Positions 2,347-39,353 of a stretch of 50,590 nt of DNA are shown in pieces (position 1 is the first letter of the stretch; every line of letters begins with the position of its first letter). Origin of the DNA: a bacterium (GTDB taxonomy: Bacteria; Planctomycetota; SKW154; DAOVDS01); assembly GCA_030669415.1 (NCBI GenBank), contig DAOVDS010000001.1, positions 1 through 50,590 on the forward strand. Direction: 5' to 3'. Below the pieces are notes generated by a model that was not told where the DNA came from, did no database searches, and saw nothing but the letters and a program-made list of their open reading frames with translations. The position numbers were made by a program, and so were the translations under genes.

Positions 2347-3303
2347 TCAATACTCTTTCGGCATATTCTGCAACTCGGCGAGGGTGAACACGGGTCCATC
2401 CTTGCAGACGTATTTCGAGCCTATGTTGCAGCGGCCGCACTTGCCTATGCCGCATTTCATGCGCATCTCAAGCGAGTTAACGATTCTGTCAGGGGGGAAG
2501 CCGAGCCTGGTCAGGACAGGCAGGGTGAACTTGATCATGATGGGCGGTCCGCAAACTATGGCCCACGAGTTTTCGGAACTGGGCGCGGCCGCTTCGACCA
2601 TCTGCGGCACAAACGCGGTGAAGGTGGAGACGCCTTCGGGCATCTTGGTCTCACCGGGGCTTTTGAGGTTGACGGGTACCCAGCCTTGGGCGGCAGCCTC
2701 TTCTATGGGGCCGTCGGGGCCGAACTTCCAGTCGATGCACTGGTAGAGGTTGATGTCGTCGCGCTTGGCCCACTCGGCGAGCTCGTCTCGGTAGAGGAGG
2801 AGGTTCGGGTTTCTCGCGCCGTAGACTACTTCTATGTTGGCGTAGTCGCCGCGGTGCGACGGGTCGAGCAGCCAGACGATGTAGGCGCGAAGGGTGGTGA
2901 AGGCGAAGCCGCCGCCGATAATGACGATGTTGTCGCCCTTCATTTTCTCGTAGGGGTACCAGTTGCCCATGGGCCCTCGCACGCCCATTGTGTCGCCTTC
3001 CTGCATCTGGTGGAGCTTGCGCGTCACGAGGCCCACCTTGTTGACGGTGAAACGCAGAAACCCTTTTTCCGTCGGCGAGGATGCGATGCCGATGGGTGAT
3101 TCACCCTTGCCGAGTATGGACAATTCGGCGAACTGGCCCGGCTCATACTTGAATGCTTCTTCATCTTCCTTGTCGAGGAAGACGAGGTCGAAGGTCTTGA
3201 GCATGTTGTCTTCAGTTTCGACCCTGGCCCTGTCGATTCGCACGGGATAAGGCACGTAAGGGTTGCCCGCCTTCCCGACCTGAGCTGCCGCAGTCTTTTC
3301 CAC
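2347..3303 (-). CDS. FlxA/AsrB/HydG-like FAD/NAD(P)-binding oxidoreductase with a C-terminal 2Fe-2S site
   Basis: IVIIGGGFAF dinucleotide fold and C-terminal CGIGKCGRCNIG...C (PyrK/AsrB-type cluster). Confidence 0.8.
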   Translation of the reverse strand: MEKTAAAQVGKAGNPYVPYPVRIDRARVETEDNMLKTFDLVFLDKEDEEAFKYEPGQFAELSILGKGESPIGIASSPTEKGFLRFTVNKVGLVTRKLHQMQEGDTMGVRGPMGNWYPYEKMKGDNIVIIGGGFAFTTLRAYIVWLLDPSHRGDYANIEVVYGARNPNLLLYRDELAEWAKRDDINLYQCIDWKFGPDGPIEEAAAQGWVPVNLKSPGETKMPEGVSTFTAFVPQMVEAAAPSSENSWAIVCGPPIMIKFTLPVLTRLGFPPDRIVNSLEMRMKCGIGKCGRCNIGSKYVCKDGPVFTLAELQNMPKEY

Positions 3304-3309
3304 GCTGTG

Positions 3310-4350
3310 CTACGTTCCTTCCTGAACTTTCCGGGCCTGCATGACCTTGCCCAGCACCTCTCTGATATCGATGTTGACAGGGCAGTTGGCAATGCAGCGC
3401 CCGCACCCCACGCAGGCGGTGCAGCCGAAATTCTCGACATAGTAGTTGAACTTGTGCTGCAGCCTCTGGCGCCAGCGCTGGCCCTGCTGCGAGCGGGGAT
3501 TGTGTCCGGAGCCGTGGAGGGTGAAGAGTGGGAACATGCACGAGTCCCAGTTGCGCACCCTCTGACCGCTTGATTTCACAACTTCATCCTGGATATCGAA
3601 GCAGTGGCAGGTGGGGCACAGATAGGTGCACGCGCCGCAGCCGAGGCAGGATTGAGCAATCTCGGCCCAGATGGGGTGCTCGAAGATGTCCTTGAGCTTC
3701 TCGGGCATTCCGGCAAGCTCGACCTTCGAGGAGATTCTTTTCTCAGCCTCGGCAGCGATGGATTCCTTCTGCTTGAGGCCCTCTTTGCCTGCATCGGGCA
3801 GGTCGGCAACGGCCTTTTCACCCTTGCCGGTGAGGGGCTCAAGTAGCAGCTTGTCCCCGAGGTCTGTCATAAACACGTCAGCCCCGTCGGTGCTGAACGG
3901 GCCGCAGTCCAGCGATGTACAGAAACAGGTTTGACACGGGCTATTGCAGCCGAGCGCGAAAACGGTGGATGCGTCGCGCTTGGCTTTGTAGTAGGGGTCA
4001 ACAAACTCGTCGTTATCGAAGAGCTTGTCGAGAATGGTGAAGGACTTCGCGTCGCAAGGCCTGAGGGCGAAGAGAGCGCGCGGCTTCCTGTCGAACTCGG
4101 TATCCCCGAGCTCAAAGCCGTCGCCCTTGCGCTTGTAGTCGTACATGCGCTCGGTCTGCGGGAAGAAGGCGGCCTTGGGCGTGTTGCGGGTGTTGGCGAA
4201 GTCGAATGTGACGCTCTCACCCTCGCGGGGCGCGGCAAAGAGCACCATCCCGTCGCGCTGAACGGGCGCCAGTACAAGTGCCTGCTGCGCGAGCTTTGCG
4301 AGGAATTCGCCTACTTTCGACTTGTCCAGCAGTTTTTCTCCACTCGCCAC
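3310..4350 (-). CDS. FlxB/AsrA/HydB-like iron-sulfur subunit
   Basis: Cys clusters CLGCGACTYLCPTCHCFD and CVGCGRCIANCP; position between the flxA-like and flxC-like genes. Confidence 0.7.
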   Translation of the reverse strand: MASGEKLLDKSKVGEFLAKLAQQALVLAPVQRDGMVLFAAPREGESVTFDFANTRNTPKAAFFPQTERMYDYKRKGDGFELGDTEFDRKPRALFALRPCDAKSFTILDKLFDNDEFVDPYYKAKRDASTVFALGCNSPCQTCFCTSLDCGPFSTDGADVFMTDLGDKLLLEPLTGKGEKAVADLPDAGKEGLKQKESIAAEAEKRISSKVELAGMPEKLKDIFEHPIWAEIAQSCLGCGACTYLCPTCHCFDIQDEVVKSSGQRVRNWDSCMFPLFTLHGSGHNPRSQQGQRWRQRLQHKFNYYVENFGCTACVGCGRCIANCPVNIDIREVLGKVMQARKVQEGT

Positions 4351-4392
4351 CTAACACTCCCATTGTTCAAACGCGCTGCGCTGAAACCAGCG

Positions 4393-5343
4393 TCAGATAA
4401 CCTGTTCCATCTGGTCTTCCTCGGCAAAGGTATTCAGCGGCGGCAGTTCCTCAATATCCATACCCACCTCGTGCCCGAAGCGGTCTTTGACGCTCTTTTC
4501 GAGCCTCGAGAGGAGACGCCGGATGTCTATGTTCATGGGGCACGCGCTGACGCACGCGCCGCAGTCGCTGCAGCGCCCCGCGAGATGATAACAGCGCACA
4601 ATCTGGAAAATATCGAGAGCTGTCTGCTCCTGGCCGGTCTCAATCCAGCGGGGCTGCCAGTTCTCGACGAAGCATGTCGGGCAATAGCACATGGGGCATG
4701 CCTCACGGCAGGCATAGCACCTGATGCAGCGAGAGGCTTCGTTCTCGAACTCGGCCCAGCGCTGCTGGGCTGGTTTTTTTTCGTCTTCTTCAAGCTGCGC
4801 GTAGCGAGCGGGGTTGGGCACGTCCTCAACCGGCTCGGCCGCCATCACGTCGTGGATTACGGGGTTGTGGTGCTCGCAGACAGCGCAGTTGGCGCGCAGG
4901 ATGTCTGCAATCTTGAGCTCCTCTGTGCCAGCCGGGGTTTCGACTTTGAGTGAGCCGTCGCCGACGCTGCACGAGAGAATCCTGCCGGGGTCGGGAAGGC
5001 GGGTTCTGTCAACAACGCCAACGCAGGGGACGCCGATTATGTATAGGTCATCCCTCTGTCCCTGACCTTCCTTGAGCAGTGCGACAATGGAGCGGCTGTC
5101 GCAGCCCTTGGCGCAGATACCGACTTTCTTCCCGGTGAAATCCTTGAGGTAGCGTGCGAGGTTGTTTTCCGCGAAGGGCCCCCACACCAGTTTCCCGGTA
5201 TCCTCCGGCTTTGTGACAAAGACTGGTACGTAGCGCCCGGGCAGTGTTCCCTCGCCGAAGCCTATGACCACTTCGACCCTGCCCGACTCGAGCGCATCCC
5301 TGGCCAGCTCTCTTATCTTCTTCGCTGTATCTTCGTAGGCCAC
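4393..5343 (-). CDS. FlxC-like iron-sulfur subunit
   Basis: CIRCYACREACPMCYCPTC and CSDCGACVSACP motifs; operon context. Confidence 0.65.
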   Translation of the reverse strand: MAYEDTAKKIRELARDALESGRVEVVIGFGEGTLPGRYVPVFVTKPEDTGKLVWGPFAENNLARYLKDFTGKKVGICAKGCDSRSIVALLKEGQGQRDDLYIIGVPCVGVVDRTRLPDPGRILSCSVGDGSLKVETPAGTEELKIADILRANCAVCEHHNPVIHDVMAAEPVEDVPNPARYAQLEEDEKKPAQQRWAEFENEASRCIRCYACREACPMCYCPTCFVENWQPRWIETGQEQTALDIFQIVRCYHLAGRCSDCGACVSACPMNIDIRRLLSRLEKSVKDRFGHEVGMDIEELPPLNTFAEEDQMEQVI

Positions 5344-5626: not shown

Positions 5627-5804
5627 CTACTACTCCGTCACTATTGAAATTGTAGGTTTATGTCTAACTGACTCCTATGAAACACAGAACATTCAACACC
5701 TGATTTTATTACACGGCGGACAAGTCCACCGGCTAACTACCCGCGCCCTGAAGGACGCGGCTTACATCAACCCCGCGTCAGAGACGCGTGGCTTCTTCTG
5801 CACA

Positions 5805-6260
5805 CTATGTTGTAAGTCCTGCCGCCAAACATTTATAAGATTTCACGAGTCGGCGTGCAGGCCCCAGCGCCCTGACCTTGTCGATAGTAGCGTTGACGAT
5901 TTTGACAAATCTCTCAGCCTCGGCGGAAGAGAGCCATGCGAAATTCGCCCTGCCCTCTTCAATCCCAAGCGATTCAAGGAGGTCTTTAAGGACGACAAAC
6001 TTGCGCCGCGCCAGCAGGTTGCCCACGCTGTAGTGGCACTCGCCGGGATGGCAGCCCGCAACGACTACCCCATCGGCACCACGCTGGAGCGCGCGAAGGA
6101 TAAACATGGGGTTAACCCTGCTGGTGCAGGGCACTCTTATGATTCTCACATTGGGCGGATACTGGAACCTTGACACGCCTGCCAGGTCGGCTGCGGCGAA
6201 CCCTCACCACTGGCACAGGAAGGCGACAACCTTCGGCTCCCAATTTTTGTTCTCTTCCAT
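5805..6260 (-). CDS. mvhD: MvhD/FlxD-like 2Fe-2S protein with in-frame UGA (selenocysteine) at codon 19
   Basis: ATG 6260 (GAGAGG upstream) reads MEENKNWEPKVVAFLCQW-TGA(6204-6206)[26 protein letters not shown]...GCHPGECHY. The paralog has Cys here (FCCNWCSY). The ORF track only shows the part after the TGA. Confidence 0.8.
6176..6198 (-). promoter_or_regulatory. Weak candidate SECIS-like stem-loop downstream of the mvhD (5805-6260) UGA
   Basis: CGCC-G-CAG-CCGAC-CUG-GCA-GGCG, starting 5 nt after the UGA. An interrupted stem only. Confidence 0.25.
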
Positions 6261-6289
6261 GTATATTCCGGCCTCTCACCTATGAGTTT

Positions 6290-6697
6290 CTACTCAATCG
6301 GCGCTACTTCCTCAGTTTCCAGGAAGAATTCATGGTTTTTCTCGTCAAAAATAATCAGGAACTTCTCGAAGAAGTCTTTTCTTCCAAGGATATTCATTCT
6401 GGCGGTATATTGCCTTGAGAAGCCTATATCACAGGGGAATTCCTGCTCGGCAACTGCCACGGTCAGTCTATGTACATATGCCCGAATCAGTCCCCCTACG
6501 CCTCCAAGCAAGACAGGCTCGCCCTCCTCAATTTTCAGTCCTAACGTATGGGCAACTTCCTCCCGAAATATTGAAACTGTTGCGCCGGAGTCCAACAGCG
6601 CGACATTCTGGTGCCCGCGCTTACCTGTTTTGACCTCCAGTGGAGCCAAAGGGAAGAATTTGCCCCACCTCAGAGTATAGCCGTACACTCGTTTCAT
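6290..6697 (-). CDS. Retropepsin-like (clan AA) aspartyl protease
   Basis: ALLDSGATVSIF active-site motif. About 135 aa, single-lobe size. Overlaps the upstream small gene by 4 nt. Confidence 0.7.
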   Translation of the reverse strand: MKRVYGYTLRWGKFFPLAPLEVKTGKRGHQNVALLDSGATVSIFREEVAHTLGLKIEEGEPVLLGGVGGLIRAYVHRLTVAVAEQEFPCDIGFSRQYTARMNILGRKDFFEKFLIIFDEKNHEFFLETEEVAPIE

Positions 6698-6924
6698 AGG
6701 ACTAAGAACCCCTCGTCCCTACGAGGAACGCAAAATGTCCACGGATGTTCCTCGCCCTTGGCTTTTGCCTGCTTCATTGCAGATTCCAGATTCTCGTCAG
6801 CGCCGAGCAGTCCCTTTTCAGGGGTAAAAGCAATCCATTTCCCTTCATTCGCTTCCAGTACATCCTGATGGGCCGATATCCACTCAAGCACTTCTGCGTT
6901 TTCGCCTTTTTTTACTTCTTCCAT
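6694..6924 (-). CDS. Small protein resembling the DUF5678-type partner of retropepsin-like proteases
   Basis: 76 aa with GKWIAF...KAKGEEHPWTFCVP pattern. Translationally coupled to the protease gene. The family assignment is from memory. Confidence 0.5.
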   Translation of the reverse strand: MEEVKKGENAEVLEWISAHQDVLEANEGKWIAFTPEKGLLGADENLESAMKQAKAKGEEHPWTFCVPRRDEGFLVL

Positions 6925-6935
6925 TTCGGGTACTC

Positions 6936-9900
6936 CTACAACGCTTCTATGAGCGACACTATCTGGGCGTTGGTAAAGCCTTTCATATCAATCGCGTTTG
7001 ACCGGCAGGATGCCGCGCAGATACCGCAGCCCTTGCAGAGCGCGCCGGTGACTTCAGCGTATCGGCTGGTCACGCCGCGGCGCGTCACCTCGACCACCTT
7101 CACTGCCGAGTAGGGGCAGACGCTCTCACACATGCCGCATGCGGAGCACAGTGCGGTGTTGACCTGCGAAATAGTACCCTCCGCCTTGATTTCGTCGAGC
7201 GTAAGCACGGTGCAGGCGCGCGAGACGGCCGCATTGGCCTGCACGATTGATTCCTCGACAAACTTGGGGAAATGGCACAGGCCTGCCATGAAGACGCCAT
7301 CCGTGGTGAAGTCAACGGGCCGGAGCTTCATGTGCGCCTCAAGATAGAAGCTCTCGGCGTTGGTGTCTATCTTGAGCATCTGGGCGAGTGATTTCGTATC
7401 TTCCTGCGGCACAGTGGCGACTGAGAGCACGAGGTAATCTGCAGGTATGCTGATGTCCTGGCCGATGAGCCTGTCAAGGACCCGCACGTAGGGCTTCCCA
7501 TCGCGCTCTTCGACGACGGGCGGGTTCTCCGGCTCGTAGGTGGTGAAGATGACGCCCTTTTCGCGCGCCTCTTTGTATGCCAGCTCTCTCATGCCGTAAG
7601 TGCGAATGTCGCGGTAGAGGACATAGATGTTCGCGCCGGGATTGAGCTCCTTGAGCTTGAGTGCGTTCTTGACCGCCTGCGTGCAGCAGAAGCGCGAGCA
7701 GTAAGGCCGCTCGTCGCAGCGGGAGCCGACGCATTGAATCATAACGACGTTCTTTGCCGCCGTTACGTCCTTATCACCGTCGGCGAGCCTGTTCTCGAAT
7801 TCGGACTGGGTGAGCACGCGTTCGTTTTTGCCGTAGAGGTACTCGGTGGGCTTGTATTCGAGTCCGCCGGTGCACACAATCACTACGCCGTGCTCGTACT
7901 CTTCCTCGCCCGCTGGCGTTTCGAGCAGTGTCTTGTAGTTTCCTATGTAGCCTTCGATGTTCTTTATGCTGGTGGAGGTAAAGAGCTTGAGGTTGGGCTG
8001 CGCCTTCACCTGCGCGATAGTCTCTTCAAGCAGCTTCTGCGGGTCTTCGCCCGAGAGGGTGAAGCGGATATGTCGCAGGTGTCCGCCCAGCTCTTCCTCG
8101 CGCTCGACCAGCGCGACCTCGAAGCCCTGCTGCGCGATTCCGAGCGCGGCGGTCATTCCGGCGATTCCGCCGCCAATGACGAGCGCCTTCTTGGTGAGCG
8201 GAAATGTCAGGCGCTCAAGCGGCTCAAGCAGGTAGGCCTTGTTTACGGACATGGCGATTAGCTCTTTGGCCTTCTCCGTGGCGACATCAGGGAGGGCCGC
8301 ATGAACCCAGGAGCACTGGTCGCGGATATTGGCCATCTCGAACAGGTAGCGGTTGAGCCCGCTTGCGGCGCAGGTTTCCTGGAAGAGCGGCTCGTGCGTT
8401 CTCGGCGTGCAGCTTGCCACCACGACGCGGTTGATGCCCTGCTCCTTTATGACTTCCTTCATCTTCTCCTGCGTATCCTGCGAGCAGGTGAACAGGTTGC
8501 GCTCCACGTAAGTCACGTTGGGCAGCGTTTTGGCGAACTCTTCGAGTGCTTCCATGTCGAGCACGCCGGCGATGTTGATTCCACAGTGGCAGAGAAAGAC
8601 GCCGATACGCGGGCCTTCGGCCGCGATGTCTTTCTCCTTTACGGGCTCCGGTATGGTAATTTCCTTGCCGCGCTCGCCGGCGAGATAGCGGGAGGCAAGC
8701 GCCGCGGCCCCGGAGGACTGGGTAACAGTTTCGGGTATGTCCTTTGGTCCCTGGAAGGTCCCGATTACGTACACACCGTCCCGGGTGGTTGAGAGGGGGG
8801 TGAACTCTCCCGTCTTTGCGAAGCCGAACTGGTCGAGCTCAATTGCGCAGACTTCGGCGAGTTTTGCCGCCTCGATGGGGGTTGAGAGGCCGGCCGAGAG
8901 GACGACCATCTCGTACTGGCCTGTCTTGAGCTCGCCTTCTTCAGTTTCGTACTTGATAAACAGGTTGCGGGTAGCGGGGTCTTCTTCGATGTTCGAGACG
9001 CGGGAGCGAACGAACTTCACGCCCGACTTCTCCTTGGCACGCTCGACGTACTTGTCGAAGTCCTTGCCAAAGGAGCGGAGGTCCATGTAGAAGATGGTGC
9101 AGTCGAGGCCGTGGACGTGGTCCTTGGCGATGACTGCTTCCTTGGTGGCATACATGCAGCAGGCGCTTGAGCAGTAGTCCTTCCCTACCCGGCTGTCACG
9201 CGAGCCGACGCACTGGACGAAAGCCAGGGATTTGGGCTCTTCGCCATCAGAGGGTCGCAGAATCAGCCCGCGATAGGGCCCGCCGGCAGCGAGGATGCGC
9301 TCGAACTCGAGCGCGTTGACGACGTTCGGGAAGCGCGCCCAGCCGAGTTCGGGCTTGAGCGAGCAGTCGAAGAGTTCGGAGCCTGCCGCGAGGATAACAG
9401 CCCCCACGTTGAGCTTCTCGACGCGCTCGGCCTGCTCGTAGTTTACGGCATCGGCCTTGCAGAGCTCGAAGCAGAGTCCGCAGCCGACGCACACGTCCTT
9501 GTCAATGGCGAATATCCTCGGCACCGCCTGTTCGTAATCCACGCGGATAGCGGGCCCGACACACATATCAAGGTTGAAGACGCTGAGCGCCTCGACGGGG
9601 CAGTGCTCGGCACACACGCCGCAGCCGGTGCACTTGTCAGGGTCAACGTACTGCGGCCGGTAGGCGATAGTGACTTTGAAGTTTCCCTTCTTGCCCTCTA
9701 CTTTGCGGACATCGGCGTTCATCAGGAGTTCGACGTTCGGGTGCCTTCCCGAGGCAACCAGCTTGGGCGAGATAATTCACATTGCGCAGTCGTTTGTCGG
9801 GAAGGTCTTGTCAAGCTGGCTCATCATGCCGCCGATGCAGGGCTTTCGGTCAAGCAGGTAGACCTTGAAGCCGGAATCACCGAGGTCAAGAGCCGCCTGC

Positions 9901-9968
9901 ATGCCGCCTATGCCGCCGCCGACGACGAGGACTGACCCGACCTTTCGCCCGTTACCTTTTTTCGCCAA
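6936..9968 (-). CDS. hdrA: Heterodisulfide reductase subunit A-like flavoprotein (tandem HdrA modules) with in-frame UGA (selenocysteine) at codon 64
   Basis: ORFs 9777..9968 and 6936..9722 share a frame. The join reads [11 protein letters not shown](9777-9779)[18 protein letters not shown], which is the HdrA DCxMC(I/L)xPK motif. Two GGGIxGMxAAL Rossmann motifs, two CVGSR...CC motifs and several 4Fe-4S CxxCxxCxxxCP sites. Confidence 0.9.
9740..9759 (-). promoter_or_regulatory. Candidate bacterial SECIS hairpin for hdrA
   Basis: GGU(U)GCC-UCGGGAA-GGCACC, 17 nt after the UGA. Same stem architecture and bulged U as the E. coli fdhF SECIS GGU(U)GCA-GGUC-UGCACC. Confidence 0.5.
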
Positions 9969-10000: not shown

Positions 10001-10768
10001 CTACACCAGTGCAGTATACAGCGGGCTGGTATCTCTTACTTCCTTAACATCCACGATGTTTCGCCCGCGAAGAATTGTCACCATTCGGAGTACCTCGGCC
10101 GGGTCAAGCCCCAGCTCCGGCGCCATCTCCCTGACTGAGCGGGGCTCCTTGCGCGTCAGGTTGACAATGCGAGCTTTGACGTACTCGTCCCTGACAGTTG
10201 TCTCAAGAAGCTCCTTGAAGGTCTCCTTGGGGTACTCCTCGCCGAACACGTTGGTGTCGGTTTCGAGACTGTACTGCTTGCCGACAAGCCAGCGCAGGCG
10301 TTCGCTGCAGGAGCCGTCGCGTGCTGCCCTCAGGTTTTCCTCGAGTTTTTCGCCGGTTGTCCCTTCGGAGCCCAGCGGGCCGAGTGCTCGCACAGCCTCG
10401 ATCGTCTCGGTTACCACGTCCACGAAGCGCTGGGCCTCGGCCGAGGAGCACCATTCGAGCCGGAACCGCTCAGGCGAGACGCCCGCAAGCTCCAGCAGCC
10501 GCTTTATGACAGGCTCCCGTCGAAGCGCATGGTAGTTGCCACTAACATAGTGGCAGTCGCCGAGGTGTCACCCGAGGACCATGACGGCATCGATGCCGAG
10601 GAGAAAAGCCTCGAAAACGAGCCGCGTGTCAATCCTGCCGGAGCACATGACCCGGATATCCCGGACGTTTGTTGGGTACTGGAGGCGCGAGACTCCCGCC
10701 AGGTCTGCGCTGGCATACGAGCACCAGTTGCAGCAGAACGCGAGTATCCTGGGCTCGAAATCCGCCAT
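10001..10768 (-). CDS. mvhD: MvhD-like 2Fe-2S protein with in-frame UGA (selenocysteine) at codon 67 and a roughly 130-aa C-terminal extension
   Basis: ORFs 10568..10768 and 10001..10423 share a frame. The join reads [11 protein letters not shown](10568-10570)[17 protein letters not shown], which is the conserved GCHxGDCHY motif with Sec in place of the first Cys. AGGAG lies upstream of ATG 10768. Confidence 0.85.
10537..10555 (-). promoter_or_regulatory. Candidate SECIS hairpin for mvhD (10001-10768)
   Basis: UGCCACU-AUGUU-AGUGGCA: a perfect 7-bp stem starting 12 nt after the UGA. Confidence 0.45.
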
Positions 10769-10869: not shown

Positions 10870-11081
10870 GGATAAATTGCAAAATATCACCGGACTGCAA
10901 GTTAGCCGGTGGGCTTGCCCGCCGAGTGATTAACAACACGGCGAGGTGCCGCAGGATTCTGAAGGGGCCAGTCACCGACCCCCCCGGGGCTTCGTAAGTT
11001 CAAGGCTCCTGTAACCCGGCACGCAGAGATTACCTACAAAACTGTCGCGGACACGCTAACTGATGTTTTTGGAGTTTTTGA

Positions 11082-11169: not shown

Positions 11170-11691
11170 TTGAGTCCCGAAACCGCCGCTCAAGGCGAGA
11201 TTGTGGTTACGGATCTCGACCCGAACTTCAAGTACGAAGTCGCCGAGCTGCCGGGAGGCGAAAACCTGCGTTACTGCTTCACCTGCGGCACGTGTACGGC
11301 TTCCTGTCCCATTCGCGAGGTCAACGAGATATTCAACCCTCGCAAGATAATCCGCATGATTGTCCTGGGCATGAAGGAGAGGGTGCTAAAGAGTGAATTC
11401 ATGTGGCTCTGCACGGGGTGCTACTCGTGCCAGGAGCGCTGCCCGCAGGATGTGAAAATAACGGACCTGATGAACGCGCTGAAGAACTACGCGGTCAAGC
11501 ACGGGGTTGTCCACCCGGGCGTTGCCGCGCAGGCCGAGCCGATTTACAACGACGGGCGCATCTACGCAATCGAGGATTTCGACAACAAGAAGCGCGAGAA
11601 ACTGGGGCTGCCCCGCGTCAAGCCCAGGACCGAGGATGCGTCCAAGATATTCGAAGTTACGGGTCTGGACAAGATAGTCAAGAAAGGGTAA
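11170..11691 (+). CDS. hdrC: Heterodisulfide reductase subunit C
   Basis: CFTCGTCTASCP and CTGCYSCQERCP motifs; immediately followed by hdrB. Confidence 0.85.
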   Translation: MSPETAAQGEIVVTDLDPNFKYEVAELPGGENLRYCFTCGTCTASCPIREVNEIFNPRKIIRMIVLGMKERVLKSEFMWLCTGCYSCQERCPQDVKITDLMNALKNYAVKHGVVHPGVAAQAEPIYNDGRIYAIEDFDNKKREKLGLPRVKPRTEDASKIFEVTGLDKIVKKG

Positions 11692-11696
11692 CCGAG

Positions 11697-12584
11697 ATGG
11701 CTGACAACAAGTATCTGCTGTTTCTGGGATGCACAATACCCGCCAGGGCCAGGAACTACGAGCTTTCCAGCCGCGCGATAGCCGCGAAGCTCGGCATCGA
11801 GTTTGTAGAGGAGGACGAGTTCTTCTGCTGCGGCTTCCCCGTCAAGAACGCGGACTGGATGGCCTGCGCACTCATGGCTGCGCGCAACATCGCCATTGCG
11901 GAGCAGAAGGGCCTGGACATCTGCTGCCTGTGCTCAGCCTGCACGGGTGTTATGGCCGAAGTCAACGAGCACCTCAAGCACGACGAGAAGCTGCGCGAGG
12001 AAGTCAACGAGAAGCTCGCCAAAATCAACCCCAGCTACAAGGTCGAGGGCAAGCTCGCGGTCAAGCACTTCGCGCGAATCCTCTTCGAGGACGTGGGCGT
12101 CGAGAAGATAAAAGAGCTCGCCGCCAAGCCGCTCGAGATGCTCAGAATCGCACCGCACTACGGCTGCCACTACCTCAAGCCTTCGGACGTCCACAAGTGG
12201 GACAACGTCGAAGACCCTCAGACGCTCGATGAAATTATCACTGCCTGCGGCGCCGAGTCGGTCGAGTACACCGACAAGAAGTTCTGCTGCGGCGGCGCCC
12301 TGCTCGCTTACGACCAGGATACCGCCCTCGCCGTGGGAAACCACAAGCTCGAAATCGTGAAAGACGCGGGCGTGGACGCAATCACCCTCATCTGCCCCTT
12401 CTGCGCCGTAATGTACGATGACAACCAGCGCACGATAGAAGCCAAGTTCGAGAAGGAGTACAAGCTGCCCGTGCTCTACCTGCCACAGGTTATCGGCCTG
12501 TCCATGGGTATCCCGGCCAAGGAGCTCGGCATGCAGTTCAACAAGGTCAAGACCAAGGATCTCCTCGCCAAGGTCGAAGCATAA
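11697..12584 (+). CDS. hdrB: Heterodisulfide reductase subunit B (two CCG domains)
   Basis: FFCCGFP and KFCCGGALL CCG motifs. ATG 11697 lies 5 nt after the hdrC stop. The longer ORF from 11403 is an overlap artefact. Confidence 0.9.
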   Translation: MADNKYLLFLGCTIPARARNYELSSRAIAAKLGIEFVEEDEFFCCGFPVKNADWMACALMAARNIAIAEQKGLDICCLCSACTGVMAEVNEHLKHDEKLREEVNEKLAKINPSYKVEGKLAVKHFARILFEDVGVEKIKELAAKPLEMLRIAPHYGCHYLKPSDVHKWDNVEDPQTLDEIITACGAESVEYTDKKFCCGGALLAYDQDTALAVGNHKLEIVKDAGVDAITLICPFCAVMYDDNQRTIEAKFEKEYKLPVLYLPQVIGLSMGIPAKELGMQFNKVKTKDLLAKVEA

Positions 12585-25891: not shown

Positions 25892-26006
25892 GCAGTCAAC
25901 ACGGCGAACAAGTTCGCCGGCTAAATACCCCCGCCGTGAACGGCGGGGCTTGGGAAATTACATTCCGCGTTGCAGTCAACGCGGCGAACAAGTTCGCCGG
26001 CTAAAT
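25892..26006. repeat. REP-like hairpin (25929-25948) flanked by a 35-nt direct duplication (25892-25926 / 25972-26006)
   Basis: ccccgccg-tgaa-cggcgggg followed by cttgggaaatt. The duplicated unit gcagtcaacRcggcgaacaagttcgccggctaaat includes the aminotransferase stop codon and its ggcgaac..gttcgcc hairpin. Confidence 0.75.
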
Positions 26007-27221
26007 GCCCGCTGAGGCGAGGAACTGTTCGAGGCGGTTGAGCCCTTCTTCCAGGTCGTCCATGCCCGTGGCGTAGGACAGGCGGATGTAGTTCTCGGCG
26101 CCGAAGCCAATGCCGGGCACCACAGCGACGTGCTTCTGTTCGAGAAGAGTTGTGGCAAATTCAATCGAGCCGGTAACTTTCGCATCGCCGAAGGTCTTGT
26201 CCATGAAGCCGGCAACTGATAAGAAGAGGAAGAAGGCGCCGCCGGGCATGAAGCAGGAAAGGCCGTCAATGGAGTTTATTCGCTTGACAGTGAAGTCGCG
26301 CCTCTTGCGGAATTCTTCGGTACGCTCTGCAATGATTTCGTCGCCGGAGGAAAGCGCGACGAGAGCCGCCTTCTGGGTGATGGAGTTCACCCCCGAGGTG
26401 CTCTGGCTCTGGATTTTGGTCATCGCTTTGATAATGTCCTTCGGGCCTGCCCCGAAGCCGATTCGCCAGCCTGTCATGGCGTAGGTCTTGGAGAGGCTGT
26501 TTACGAGCACTGTGAGCGCCTTCATCTCTTCCGAAATCTGGGCGATGGATACGTGCGGCTCGGGGTTGTAGCGCAGCTTGTCGTAGACCTCGTCGCTTAT
26601 GATGTGGATACCGTGTTTGACGAATACCTGCGCAAGCGCCTCAATTTCCTCGCGGGAGTAGACTGTTCCCGTCGGGTTCTGGGGCGAATTCATAATAAAC
26701 ACTTTCGTATTGGGTGTAAGTGCCTCCTCGACCTGTGCGGCAGTGACGCGGAATTCGTTTTCCTCGCTGCCCTGCACAATCACCGGCTTCGCATCCGCAA
26801 GGACTACCATCTCAGGATATGAGACCCAGTACGGCGACGGGATAATCACCTCGTCCCCGTTCTGCGCGAGGGTCTGCAGGGCGTTATAGATTGACTGTTT
26901 CCCGCCGTTTGTCACAATTACCTGGTCGGGCGAGTAGTCGAGCTGGTTGTCTTTGTGGATTCGGGCGGCTATCGCCTCGCGAAGCTCGAGAATCCCGCCT
27001 GCCGCCGTGTAGCGGGTGAAATTCTCTTCGAGCGCCGCGACAGCCCCGGCCTTGATGTAGTCAGCCGTGTTGAAATCAGGCTCACCCGCCCCGAAGTCGA
27101 ATATCTTCACACCCCTGGCCTTGAGCTCGCGGACCTTCGCTATGACCGCGAGAGTCATCGAAGGCTTGACTGCCCTGACACGTTCCGTTAGCATCTCTGT
27201 GCACCTTTCTTTGAGTACCAA
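26001..27221 (-). CDS. Class I PLP-dependent (aspartate-type) aminotransferase
   Basis: NSLSKTYAMTGWRIGF (PLP Lys) and NPTG motifs. Start possibly MLTERV at 27194. Confidence 0.9.
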   Translation of the reverse strand: MVLKERCTEMLTERVRAVKPSMTLAVIAKVRELKARGVKIFDFGAGEPDFNTADYIKAGAVAALEENFTRYTAAGGILELREAIAARIHKDNQLDYSPDQVIVTNGGKQSIYNALQTLAQNGDEVIIPSPYWVSYPEMVVLADAKPVIVQGSEENEFRVTAAQVEEALTPNTKVFIMNSPQNPTGTVYSREEIEALAQVFVKHGIHIISDEVYDKLRYNPEPHVSIAQISEEMKALTVLVNSLSKTYAMTGWRIGFGAGPKDIIKAMTKIQSQSTSGVNSITQKAALVALSSGDEIIAERTEEFRKRRDFTVKRINSIDGLSCFMPGGAFFLFLSVAGFMDKTFGDAKVTGSIEFATTLLEQKHVAVVPGIGFGAENYIRLSYATGMDDLEEGLNRLEQFLASAGI

Positions 27222-37994: not shown

Positions 37995-39353
37995 GTGAGA
38001 AGGATTCCGTCACACAAAGAACTTGAAGCTCTTCAGAAAGAACTCCAGGATAAACACGACCCGGACAGGACAAGGATTCTCGTGTGTCACACCGGCTGCA
38101 AGGCCATGGGCGCGGACCAGTTGCTGGCAGCTTTCAAGGAAGGAGTCGCCTCAGCCGGACTCCAGGAGGAAGTCGAGGTTGTTGAGACAGGCTGCCACGG
38201 ATGTTGCGCCGGTGCGCCCGTTATAGCCATCGAGCCGCAAGGCATCGTCTACCACAGCGTACAACCTGAGAACGTGGCGGAAGTTATCGAGAAGACCATA
38301 AAGAACGGCGAGTGCGTGGACTCCCTCGCCGCCGAGTCCGTGGACGACAAGCCCGTCTTCAAGCGTGAAGAGATTCCCTTCTACCGGCAGCAGCAGAAAA
38401 TCGTCCTGCGCAACTGCGGCAGGATTGACCCCACCAACTGGGAGCATTACCTCGCGCGTGACGGCTACAGCGCGCTCGCCAAGGCACTTGCCGGCCTTAC
38501 GCCCAAACAGGTCATTGACGAGGTGCTCCAGTCCGGCCTGCGAGGCCGCGGAGGCGCAGGCTTCCCCACGGGCAGAAAATGGCAGTTCGCGCGCAATGCG
38601 AAGGGCTCGCCCAAGTACATAATCTGCAACGCGGACGAAGGTGACCCCGGCGCATTCATGGACCGGAGCATCCTCGAAGGCGACCCGCACTCCGTCATTG
38701 AGGGAATGATAATAGGCGCCTTCGCAATCGGCGCGCAGAAAGGCTTCATCTACGTGCGGGCCGAGTACCCGATTGCAGTCAGGCACGCTCACAAGGCGCT
38801 CGACCAGGCACGCGCGCTCGGAATGCTCGGAGAGAACATCCTCGGCAGCAGTTTCGATTTCGAGATAGAGGTGCGCGAGGGCGCAGGCGCGTTCGTCTGC
38901 GGCGAAGAGACAGCCCTTATCGGCTCCATTGAAGGCAAGCGCGGCAAGGGTAAGTTCCATGCGCTCAAATACACCGAGTCCGCCGAGCTGCCTGACAAGG
39001 ACTACCCAATGCTGCTTACCACAGGCAGGCTGCTCTACCATTTCCACACAGGCACCATGACCCGAAGGGTCGAGTCACTCGAAGCCATCTCCCCCGAGCC
39101 GTTTGTAGAAGTCAACGCCGAGGATGCGAAAAAGCTCGGCATAGCCGATGGCGAGCTAATTCAGCTCCGCTCCCGCAGAGGTCAGACACAGGCAAAGGCG
39201 CTTATAGGCTCAATGGTGGACCGCGGCATCCTCTTCATGCCTTTCCACTTCAAGGAAGCCGCTGTCAACCTGCTGACAAATGACGCGCTTGACCCGGTTG
39301 CGAAAATCCCCGAGTTCAAAGTCTGCGCAGTCGCCATTGAGAAGGTGTCCTAA
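37995..39353 (+). CDS. Chimeric ORF: NuoF/FdsB-like N-terminus (aa 1 to about 317) fused in frame to the C-terminal molybdopterin-dinucleotide-binding domain of a formate dehydrogenase alpha subunit
   Basis: RGRGGAGFPTGRKW, CNADEGDPGAF and GAGAFVCGEETALIGSIEGKRG are followed directly by KDYPMLLTTGRLLYHFHTGTMTRR...FMPFHFKEAAVNLLTNDALDPVAKIPEFKVCAV. The NuoF 4Fe-4S domain and almost all of FdhA are missing. Likely a deletion remnant. Confidence 0.75.
   Translation: MRRIPSHKELEALQKELQDKHDPDRTRILVCHTGCKAMGADQLLAAFKEGVASAGLQEEVEVVETGCHGCCAGAPVIAIEPQGIVYHSVQPENVAEVIEKTIKNGECVDSLAAESVDDKPVFKREEIPFYRQQQKIVLRNCGRIDPTNWEHYLARDGYSALAKALAGLTPKQVIDEVLQSGLRGRGGAGFPTGRKWQFARNAKGSPKYIICNADEGDPGAFMDRSILEGDPHSVIEGMIIGAFAIGAQKGFIYVRAEYPIAVRHAHKALDQARALGMLGENILGSSFDFEIEVREGAGAFVCGEETALIGSIEGKRGKGKFHALKYTESAELPDKDYPMLLTTGRLLYHFHTGTMTRRVESLEAISPEPFVEVNAEDAKKLGIADGELIQLRSRRGQTQAKALIGSMVDRGILFMPFHFKEAAVNLLTNDALDPVAKIPEFKVCAVAIEKVS

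Follow-up and report, generated by a model that had tools for sequence, protein, structure and literature searches.

A probable selenocysteine codon with an in-gene, bacterial-type SECIS in the second MvhD gene of an Hdr/Flx-like cluster

Gene content of the cluster

The window (the entire 50,590 nt stretch analysed) carries a cluster of redox genes in the conserved order HdrB-like (divergent), mvhD1, hdrA, mvhD2, 4Fe-4S, Fer4_22, FAD/NAD(P) and GcvH-like. The genes and features referred to in the text are as follows.

nt 11403–12584 (+): HdrB-like protein with two CCG domains, divergent (TIGR03288, 284 bits, below cut-off; PF02754, two matches)
nt 10001–10768 (−): mvhD1, long-form MvhD with an FlpD domain and a C-terminal extension of about 120 aa, first gene of the cluster (Pfam)
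nt 10568–10570 (−): UGA codon 67 of mvhD1 (G-U-H-L-G-D-C-H), at the second canonical Sec site of the family (homolog census)
nt 10537–10555 (−): hairpin of mvhD1, UGCCACUA-UGU-UAGUGGCA, 12 nt 3' of the UGA
nt 6936–9968 (−): hdrA, fused double HdrA with two FAD/TrxR-like units and ferredoxin domains, 1010 codons, TTG start at 9968 (Pfam)
nt 9777–9779 (−): UGA codon 64 of hdrA (D-C-A-M-U), at the classical HdrA Sec site (ortholog comparison)
nt 5805–6260 (−): mvhD2 (FlxD-like MvhD/FlpD), CDS of 151 codons plus TAG, with predicted read-through of one UGA (translation, Pfam, PDB match)
nt 6204–6206 (−): UGA codon 19 of mvhD2, proposed selenocysteine (C16-Q-W-U19, CxxU motif; homolog census and match to contigs of four runs)
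nt 6166–6188 (−): SECIS-like hairpin of mvhD2, 9 bp stem GACCUGGCA / UGUC-A-AGGUU with one bulge (6171) and apical loop GGCG (6179–6176)
nt 6159–6188 (−): suppressed synonymous change in codons 25–34 of mvhD2, a putative SECIS footprint (five codon-invariant columns)
nt 6174–6176 (−): false start GTG (Val29) of mvhD2, giving a truncated protein of 114–123 aa; orthologs P0047 and P0117 are called here
nt 4393–5343 (−): 4Fe-4S protein of a FlxC/FlxB/FlxA-like electron-input module (Pfam and synteny)
nt 3310–4350 (−): Fer4_22 (4Fe-4S) protein of the same module (Pfam and synteny)
nt 2347–3303 (−): FAD/NAD(P)-binding protein with a DHODB-type 2Fe-2S domain, of the same module (Pfam and synteny)
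nt 1837–2337 (−): GcvH-like lipoyl-carrier protein, last gene of the cluster (PF01597, 119 bits)

Each of the three redox adaptor genes of the operon (mvhD1, hdrA and mvhD2) contains one UGA, at a conserved Cys position. Among the orthologous loci (numbered L001 onwards; origins are given below), the synteny of the three downstream genes (nt 2347–5343) is kept in L005, L006, L007, L085, L086 and L093, the GcvH-like gene at the cluster end is kept in L005 and L006, and the divergent HdrB-like gene is also found in L005. Lipoyl carriers accompany Hdr-like complexes in the sHdr systems of sulfur oxidisers.

The frame of mvhD2 opens at ATG 6260, the sole possible start because stop codons sit a few codons upstream, and reads MEENKNWEPKVVAFLCQW, then TGA (nt 6206–6204) and later AGCHPGECHY, ending at TAG (nt 5807–5805). 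With the TGA read as Cys, its translation matches PF02662 (FlpD) with 172.2 bits against a cut-off of 22.3, over the complete profile (1–123 of 123; residues 11–133), and aligns with MvhD of the HdrABC-MvhAGD complex (PDB 5ODC, chain D; E=1.3e-45). Since the latter alignment spans residues 6–136, the homology runs across the UGA. MvhD2 is predicted to be a full-length, 151-residue protein of MvhD/FlxD type, a likely [2Fe-2S] adaptor if it binds the cluster as expected.

In a six-frame motif scan of the window, two genes of MvhD type and no others came up, and the coordinates and motifs originally given for both were correct on re-reading the sequence. The other paralog, mvhD1, extends from ATG 10768 to TAG 10001 and has FCCNWCSY at the first motif, where the UGA of mvhD2 replaces the last Cys of C-x-x-C as originally described, and VLG-TGA-HLGDCHY at the second. 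Automated gene calling had been expected to cut both genes, and does so: window paralog 1 corresponds to the 140-aa protein P0123, while the mvhD2 orthologs P0047 and P0117 begin at the internal GTG. In the list of ORFs, mvhD2 appears as a 123-aa frame from GTG 6176 (nt 5805–6176), the product of which lacks the first beta-strand and the invariant Cys16, both of which align with solved MvhD structures. For hdrA, the call is a 928-aa fragment that begins at nt 9722.

Conservation of the UGA at codon 19

Homologs were taken from 164 loci, of which 4 were found by exact look-up of truncated orthologous proteins, 80 came from species-representative genomes and 80 from metagenomes. Both 80-locus sets were fetched by peptide patterns, one of which, RFQYPPNV, touches the hairpin only in its final few bases and otherwise covers the adjoining 3' flank. 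A tblastn census of these loci and the window gave 180 MvhD-type genes. In window (paralog-2) numbering, the Cys framework of the family is C16, C/U19, C45, C/U70 and C75, and 178 of the 180 genes have Cys or TGA at every one of these positions; the two exceptions are a distant paralog with Ser at site 19 and a short match that does not reach these positions. The states in MvhD2 are C, U, C, C and C.

Codon 19 is TGC or TGT in 164 of the genes, TGA in 14, TCG in one (the distant paralog) and TAA or TAG in none. Alignment of Cys codons in 164 of 180 genes with TGA in 14 is far beyond chance. Every gene with at least 70% identity to mvhD2 has TGA at this codon, a clade comprising the window, L001–L004, L005, L006, L007, L085–L088 and L093, as does the divergent second paralog of L007, while the next-closest MvhD genes (at most 65% identity) all have Cys. 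The TGA genes stem from independent assemblies: JGI metagenome contigs (L001–L004, L085–L088), MAGs (L005–L007) and L093. L005 and L006 are labelled Planctomycetota and L007 Cloacimonadota.

The 18 codons on the 5' side of the UGA evolve as coding sequence. They are in frame and conserved in 13 further TGA genes (WEPKxVAFLCQW), and over all pairs synonymous and non-synonymous differences number 201 and 165 upstream of the UGA, compared with 2657 and 1328 downstream. This bears directly on the reading adopted by the gene callers (ORF 5805–6176; P0047, P0117), in which the TGA is a genuine stop and the product is either the 123-aa protein from GTG 6176 or that of a decaying pseudogene. Such a product would be without the invariant Cys16 and the first beta-strand, the conservation of the 18 upstream codons across 13 further genes would have no explanation, and decay would not keep one stop codon and a constrained hairpin (see below) at 70–90% protein identity, nor does any homolog carry TAA or TAG at codon 19. 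In keeping with a stop, selA, selB, selD and tRNA-Sec were not found in the 50.6-kb window (a tRNA scan gave no match at all; about 39 of 47 long ORFs scanned). On balance, a genuine stop or pseudogene is most unlikely.

A sequencing or assembly error of TGA for TGC/TGT has nothing in its favour beyond the prior chance of any single-base error, and its probability is negligible. Across nt 5857–7000, contigs independently assembled from four marine-sediment metagenome runs show zero differences, so that the read error envisaged as a possible objection in the original prediction did not materialise, and the same TGA recurs in 13 other genes of independent assemblies.

A SECIS-like hairpin downstream of the UGA

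The apical loop of the mvhD2 hairpin begins 24 nt 3' of the UGA, a distance that is fixed among Sec-type genes. The consensus in these genes is 5'-GACCUGGCA-GGNG-UGUC(N)AGGUU-3', with 96.7% of cells paired, and the same hairpin is returned unguided by RNAalifold. All nine pairs are formed by 9 of 11 distinct Sec-type sequences but by none of 148 distinct Cys-type homologs, the best of which reach a maximum of 8 pairs (3 genes). The Cys-type homologs mostly encode the same peptide, DLAG(V)SR, with unconstrained codon choice.

A second line of evidence comes from synonymous sites. Among the 11 Sec-type CDSs there are 59 degenerate columns with an invariant amino acid, of which five use a single codon, and all five fall within codons 25–34 (hypergeometric P=5e-5; Mann-Whitney P=2e-4). 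The third positions that do vary within these codons include the middle of the loop (GGN, N30) and the bulged base of a Ser codon (N36), and three Ala codons just 5' of the hairpin vary freely. According to the bSECIS model, the apical loop has 3–9 nt with a G in its first two positions, the stem has 4–16 bp and the distance from UGA to loop is 16–37 nt (PMC13188914). The mvhD2 hairpin, with its 4-nt GGNG loop, 9 bp stem with one bulge, and 24 nt spacing, agrees with this model.

Other tests of the structure were negative or uninformative. No stem pair has changed on both sides, giving no covariation support; the stem is invariant save for C22->U, which keeps a wobble pair, and a frozen stem of this kind says nothing against the structure. 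Single-sequence minimum free energy (MFE) gave the region no advantage in stability over shuffled controls (z=+1.25), the hairpin is not singled out in nt 6140–6206 or nt 6120–6230, where z-scores are positive, and the free energy of the +12 to +48 segment does not separate Sec-type from Cys-type genes (P=0.23). As MFE was uninformative, thermodynamic stability was dropped as evidence and comparative constraint used in its place. It was the comparison between genes that proved decisive. An Rfam scan of the window gave no match, and a lower SECIS stem enclosing the UGA was sought, but none is conserved.

A hairpin could in principle stimulate read-through generally, and the insertion of Sec is itself a deduction, so the UGA might instead be read without selenium, by a near-cognate tRNA (Trp or Cys) or under a reassigned code, with the hairpin as a mere stimulator. 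The second of these is ruled out: of 35 further long ORFs in the window, 12 end in TGA, as does hdrA in ortholog L001, and the genetic code is therefore not reassigned. Selenium-free read-through as a whole is very unlikely, given also that Sec is already known at codon 19 in this family, that the hairpin fits the SelB-type bSECIS model in both its G-rich apical loop and its spacing, and that three such sites occur in one operon, all at conserved Cys positions.

The original identification of this TGA as a Sec codon is upheld by the clade-wide TGA, the Cys found elsewhere, the coding 5' end, the agreement of the hairpin with the SECIS model and the constraint on synonymous sites. Very probably, mvhD2 is a full-length gene in which UGA codon 19 is decoded as selenocysteine by way of an in-gene bacterial SECIS, Sec insertion being the deduced step. 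The bacterial-type SECIS within the CDS (nt 6188–6166) would direct this decoding, and SelB carrying Sec-tRNA(Sec) presumably binds the hairpin. As both the protein family and the exact position are already known to carry Sec, the result amounts to a correction of annotation and not to a discovery.

UGA codons of mvhD1 and hdrA

The UGA of mvhD1 corresponds to site 70 in paralog-2 numbering, where TGA is present in 9 genes of the set, including those of the cultured Desulfofundulus thermobenzoicus and of MAGs of Syntrophobacter, Armatimonadota and Thermodesulfobacteriota. In all nine a hairpin lies 12 nt 3' of the UGA, with the stem UGCCACUA-UGU-UAGUGGCA in six and another stem in three. The UGA of paralog 1 is thus at the other conserved Cys, the first of GCHxGDCH, as had been claimed, and the gene has a hairpin of its own. 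Homologs of mvhD1 with about 255 aa are very common, and many have winged-helix/HTH Pfam matches. In hdrA, codon 64 is TGA in L005, L006, L007, L085 and L086 and Cys in 104 other genes. Both mvhD1 (TGA 10570–10568) and hdrA (TGA 9779–9777) are likewise candidates for Sec.

No gene in the 180-gene set has TGA at both MvhD sites. L005 has the same pattern as the window, with U70 in paralog 1 and U19 in paralog 2, L006 combines Cys70 with U19, and L007 has U19 in both paralogs. The differing Sec/Cys states of these three loci show recent switching.

Relationship to known selenoproteins and Hdr complexes

The FrhD/MvhD/VhuD family is known to carry the motif CxxU and up to 2 Sec (PMC13188914, a 2026 review). 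In bacteria, 19 Sec-FrhD/MvhD genes were counted in 2006, with conversions in both directions, Sec to Cys and Cys to Sec (PMC1794560), and four Sec-MvhD genes occur in Desulfobacterium autotrophicum (PMC2702500). Knowledge of the family is unchanged by the present case, since Sec-MvhD/FrhD, the CxxU site and the frequent exchange of Sec and Cys have been in the literature from 1997–2006 onwards. Members of the clade with at least 70% identity to mvhD2 are without selenoprotein annotation in the databases searched, where they appear as truncated calls only.

A passage in PMC4989117, citing Wilting 1997, gives archaeal VhuD two distinct Sec positions, 50 codons apart. MvhD sites 19 and 70 of the window are 51 codons apart, and in Cys-form homologs the only pair with a VhuD-like spacing is the equivalent of these sites (Cys17/Cys68 in P0263). 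The six PDB VhuD/MvhD sequences and the Methanococcus/Methanopyrus matches that were retrieved have Cys at all Sec positions, and so the match to the archaeal sites is based on the published spacing. By this measure the two MvhD sites of the window match the two Sec positions of VhuD, and the paralogs appear to use, one each, both of the positions that VhuD carries together. VhuD (subunit D of the F420-non-reducing hydrogenase of Methanococcales/Methanopyrus) belongs to the same Pfam family, PF02662, and has the same conserved Cys framework as the window MvhDs. It differs in having both Sec in one polypeptide served by one archaeal SECIS in the 3'-UTR, whereas in the window there would be one Sec per paralog, each with its own in-frame bacterial SECIS, and the cluster has no MvhA/MvhG genes.

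The original prediction regarded the paralog pair with different Sec sites as a natural experiment. The split between paralogs is real, but the positions are not new, as they match those of VhuD and the CxxU motif; the arrangement is a tidy example that would not surprise a specialist.

A close parallel to MvhD2 is BamF of the class II benzoyl-CoA reductase of Geobacter metallireducens, in which Sec19 adjoins the [2Fe-2S] cluster (bioRxiv 10.64898/2026.04.10.717634). BamF is an MvhD-type [2Fe-2S] adaptor on a fused double HdrA (BamE), and the window MvhD2 similarly has a proposed Sec at residue 19 in a CxxU motif; the window HdrA is, like BamE, a fused double unit, and it has a CxxU site. The residue number and the motif suggest that Sec19 of BamF is equivalent to site 19. 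In overall architecture, BamF is a long form (more than 100 additional aa, winged helix) and resembles window paralog 1 rather than paralog 2, although a search with paralog 1 as query for a homolog named BamF found none so named. The cluster is not a class II benzoyl-CoA reductase locus (BamB-I): about 39 window ORFs were scanned, and neither BamB/C tungsten AOR-type nor BamGHI genes were present. In their place, Flx-like genes follow in the operon.

In Desulfovibrio vulgaris, FlxABCD-HdrABC acts as an NADH dehydrogenase/heterodisulfide reductase (Ramos et al. 2015, cited through PMC4759654), and Desulfotomaculum reducens has a locus similar to this type. In both clusters, the gene for an MvhD homolog has as neighbours those for two FeS proteins, a FAD/NAD(P)-binding protein and HdrA; in the window, MvhD2 holds the position of FlxD. 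The window cluster differs in its reversed order (hdrA-D-C-B-A), its fused-dimer HdrA, the second, long MvhD and the GcvH-like gene at the end; its HdrB-like gene is divergent, a separate HdrC is not recognised and the other domain types are present. The assignment to Flx is a prediction from domain content. Syntrophobacter fumaroxidans and Desulfobacterium autotrophicum provide a further likeness, as they have multiple Sec-MvhD paralogs beside Sec-HdrA genes and show recurrent Sec/Cys interconversion (PMC1794560, PMC2702500). Unlike these deltaproteobacterial Sec-MvhDs, the window genes have a host that apparently belongs to Planctomycetota, L005 and L006 being the closest MAGs.

Proposed function of the paralogs

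The domains encoded in the cluster are those of an NAD(P)H-linked, flavin-based electron-bifurcating complex of the Flx-Hdr type. In such a complex MvhD2 would, judging by homology, relay electrons between an Flx-like module that oxidises NAD(P)H and the flavin of HdrA at which bifurcation occurs. Its partners would presumably include HdrA, to which it is linked by the observed genomic adjacency of mvhD2 and hdrA.

The best lead for the role of Sec19 is that of a redox-active selenol adjoining the cluster, as proposed for Sec19 of BamF. The near-cluster selenol of BamF type is a proposed switch between one- and two-electron chemistry, and its counterpart in methanogen MvhD, a Cys, is described as forming a disulfide in the vicinity of the [2Fe-2S] cluster; a selenenylsulfide intermediate was also suggested (bioRxiv 10.64898/2026.04.10.717634). 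This has a bearing on the original description of the Sec in the two paralogs as replacing different cluster-ligand Cys residues. That the Cys residues differ is borne out; the label of ligand is unproven for site 19, where the sole structural statement found is that of a disulfide near the cluster. No list of [2Fe-2S] ligands for MvhD was found in reviews. If site 19 is not a ligand, then positions 16, 45, 70 and 75 would be the ligands and the Sec of paralog 1 would be one of them.

A more speculative possibility, regarded as doubtful, is that the two Sec sites are chemically non-equivalent, site 70 of paralog 1 providing a true selenolate ligand and site 19 of paralog 2 a free redox-active selenol. 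Taken jointly with this, and just as tentatively, the fused double HdrA might bind two MvhD adaptors, each differently tuned by selenium. The step at which selenium acts in HdrA-type bifurcation is called unresolved in structural papers of 2026, and if the sites were indeed non-equivalent the operon would be a natural paired test of selenium's role. With each canonical Sec site of VhuD assigned to its own adaptor within a single complex, the system could help to separate the role of a selenium ligand from that of a near-cluster selenol, and the value of that comparison hinges on the structural facts of cluster ligation.

For annotation, the consequences are more immediate. All three redox genes of the operon are mis-called in public data, paralog 1 as a 140-aa fragment and the orthologs of paralog 2 as 114-aa proteins. 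As a result, metabolic reconstructions of these marine-sediment bacteria would miss an intact Flx/Hdr-type bifurcating module and under-count selenoproteins.

Inserted ORFs, repeats and a possible strain-specific rearrangement around mvhD2

Two small ORFs separate hdrA from mvhD2 (nt 6290–6924, minus strand), one of 76 aa with a weak DUF5678 match and one of 135 aa that is retropepsin-like (Asp_protease_2, DSGA motif). They are absent from all 12 of 12 orthologous loci, where mvhD2 follows hdrA after about 10–90 nt, and the insertion is seen in the contigs of all four sequencing runs.

A REP-like palindromic repeat, ACACGGCGGACAAGTCCACCGGCTAA, occurs at nt 5704–5742, 25892–25930 and 25972–26010, with an inverted copy at nt 10900–10933. 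Assembler word depth over nt 5700–5790 is about 10–100 times that of flanking sequence in four runs, indicating that the repeat is a high-copy element. The copies at nt 5705–5738 and 10900–10933 have opposite orientations and flank the mvhD1-hdrA-mvhD2 block. In runs X1, X2 and X4, contigs end at nt 5857, and an alternative 3' end at this point would encode the ortholog-like ...LGPAKRMVMSL*. Because of these breaks, the MvhD2 tail RRLVKSYKCLAAGLTT, together with the spacer of 460 nt that carries the repeat and precedes the next gene, gives the impression of a strain-specific rearrangement.

Unlinked to the cluster, a single ORF (nt 37995–39353, plus strand) combines thioredoxin-like 2Fe-2S, partial NuoF-type FMN and C-terminal FdhA-type molybdopterin-binding domains. 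It looks like a fusion/deletion that has lost most of a formate-dehydrogenase-like catalytic subunit.
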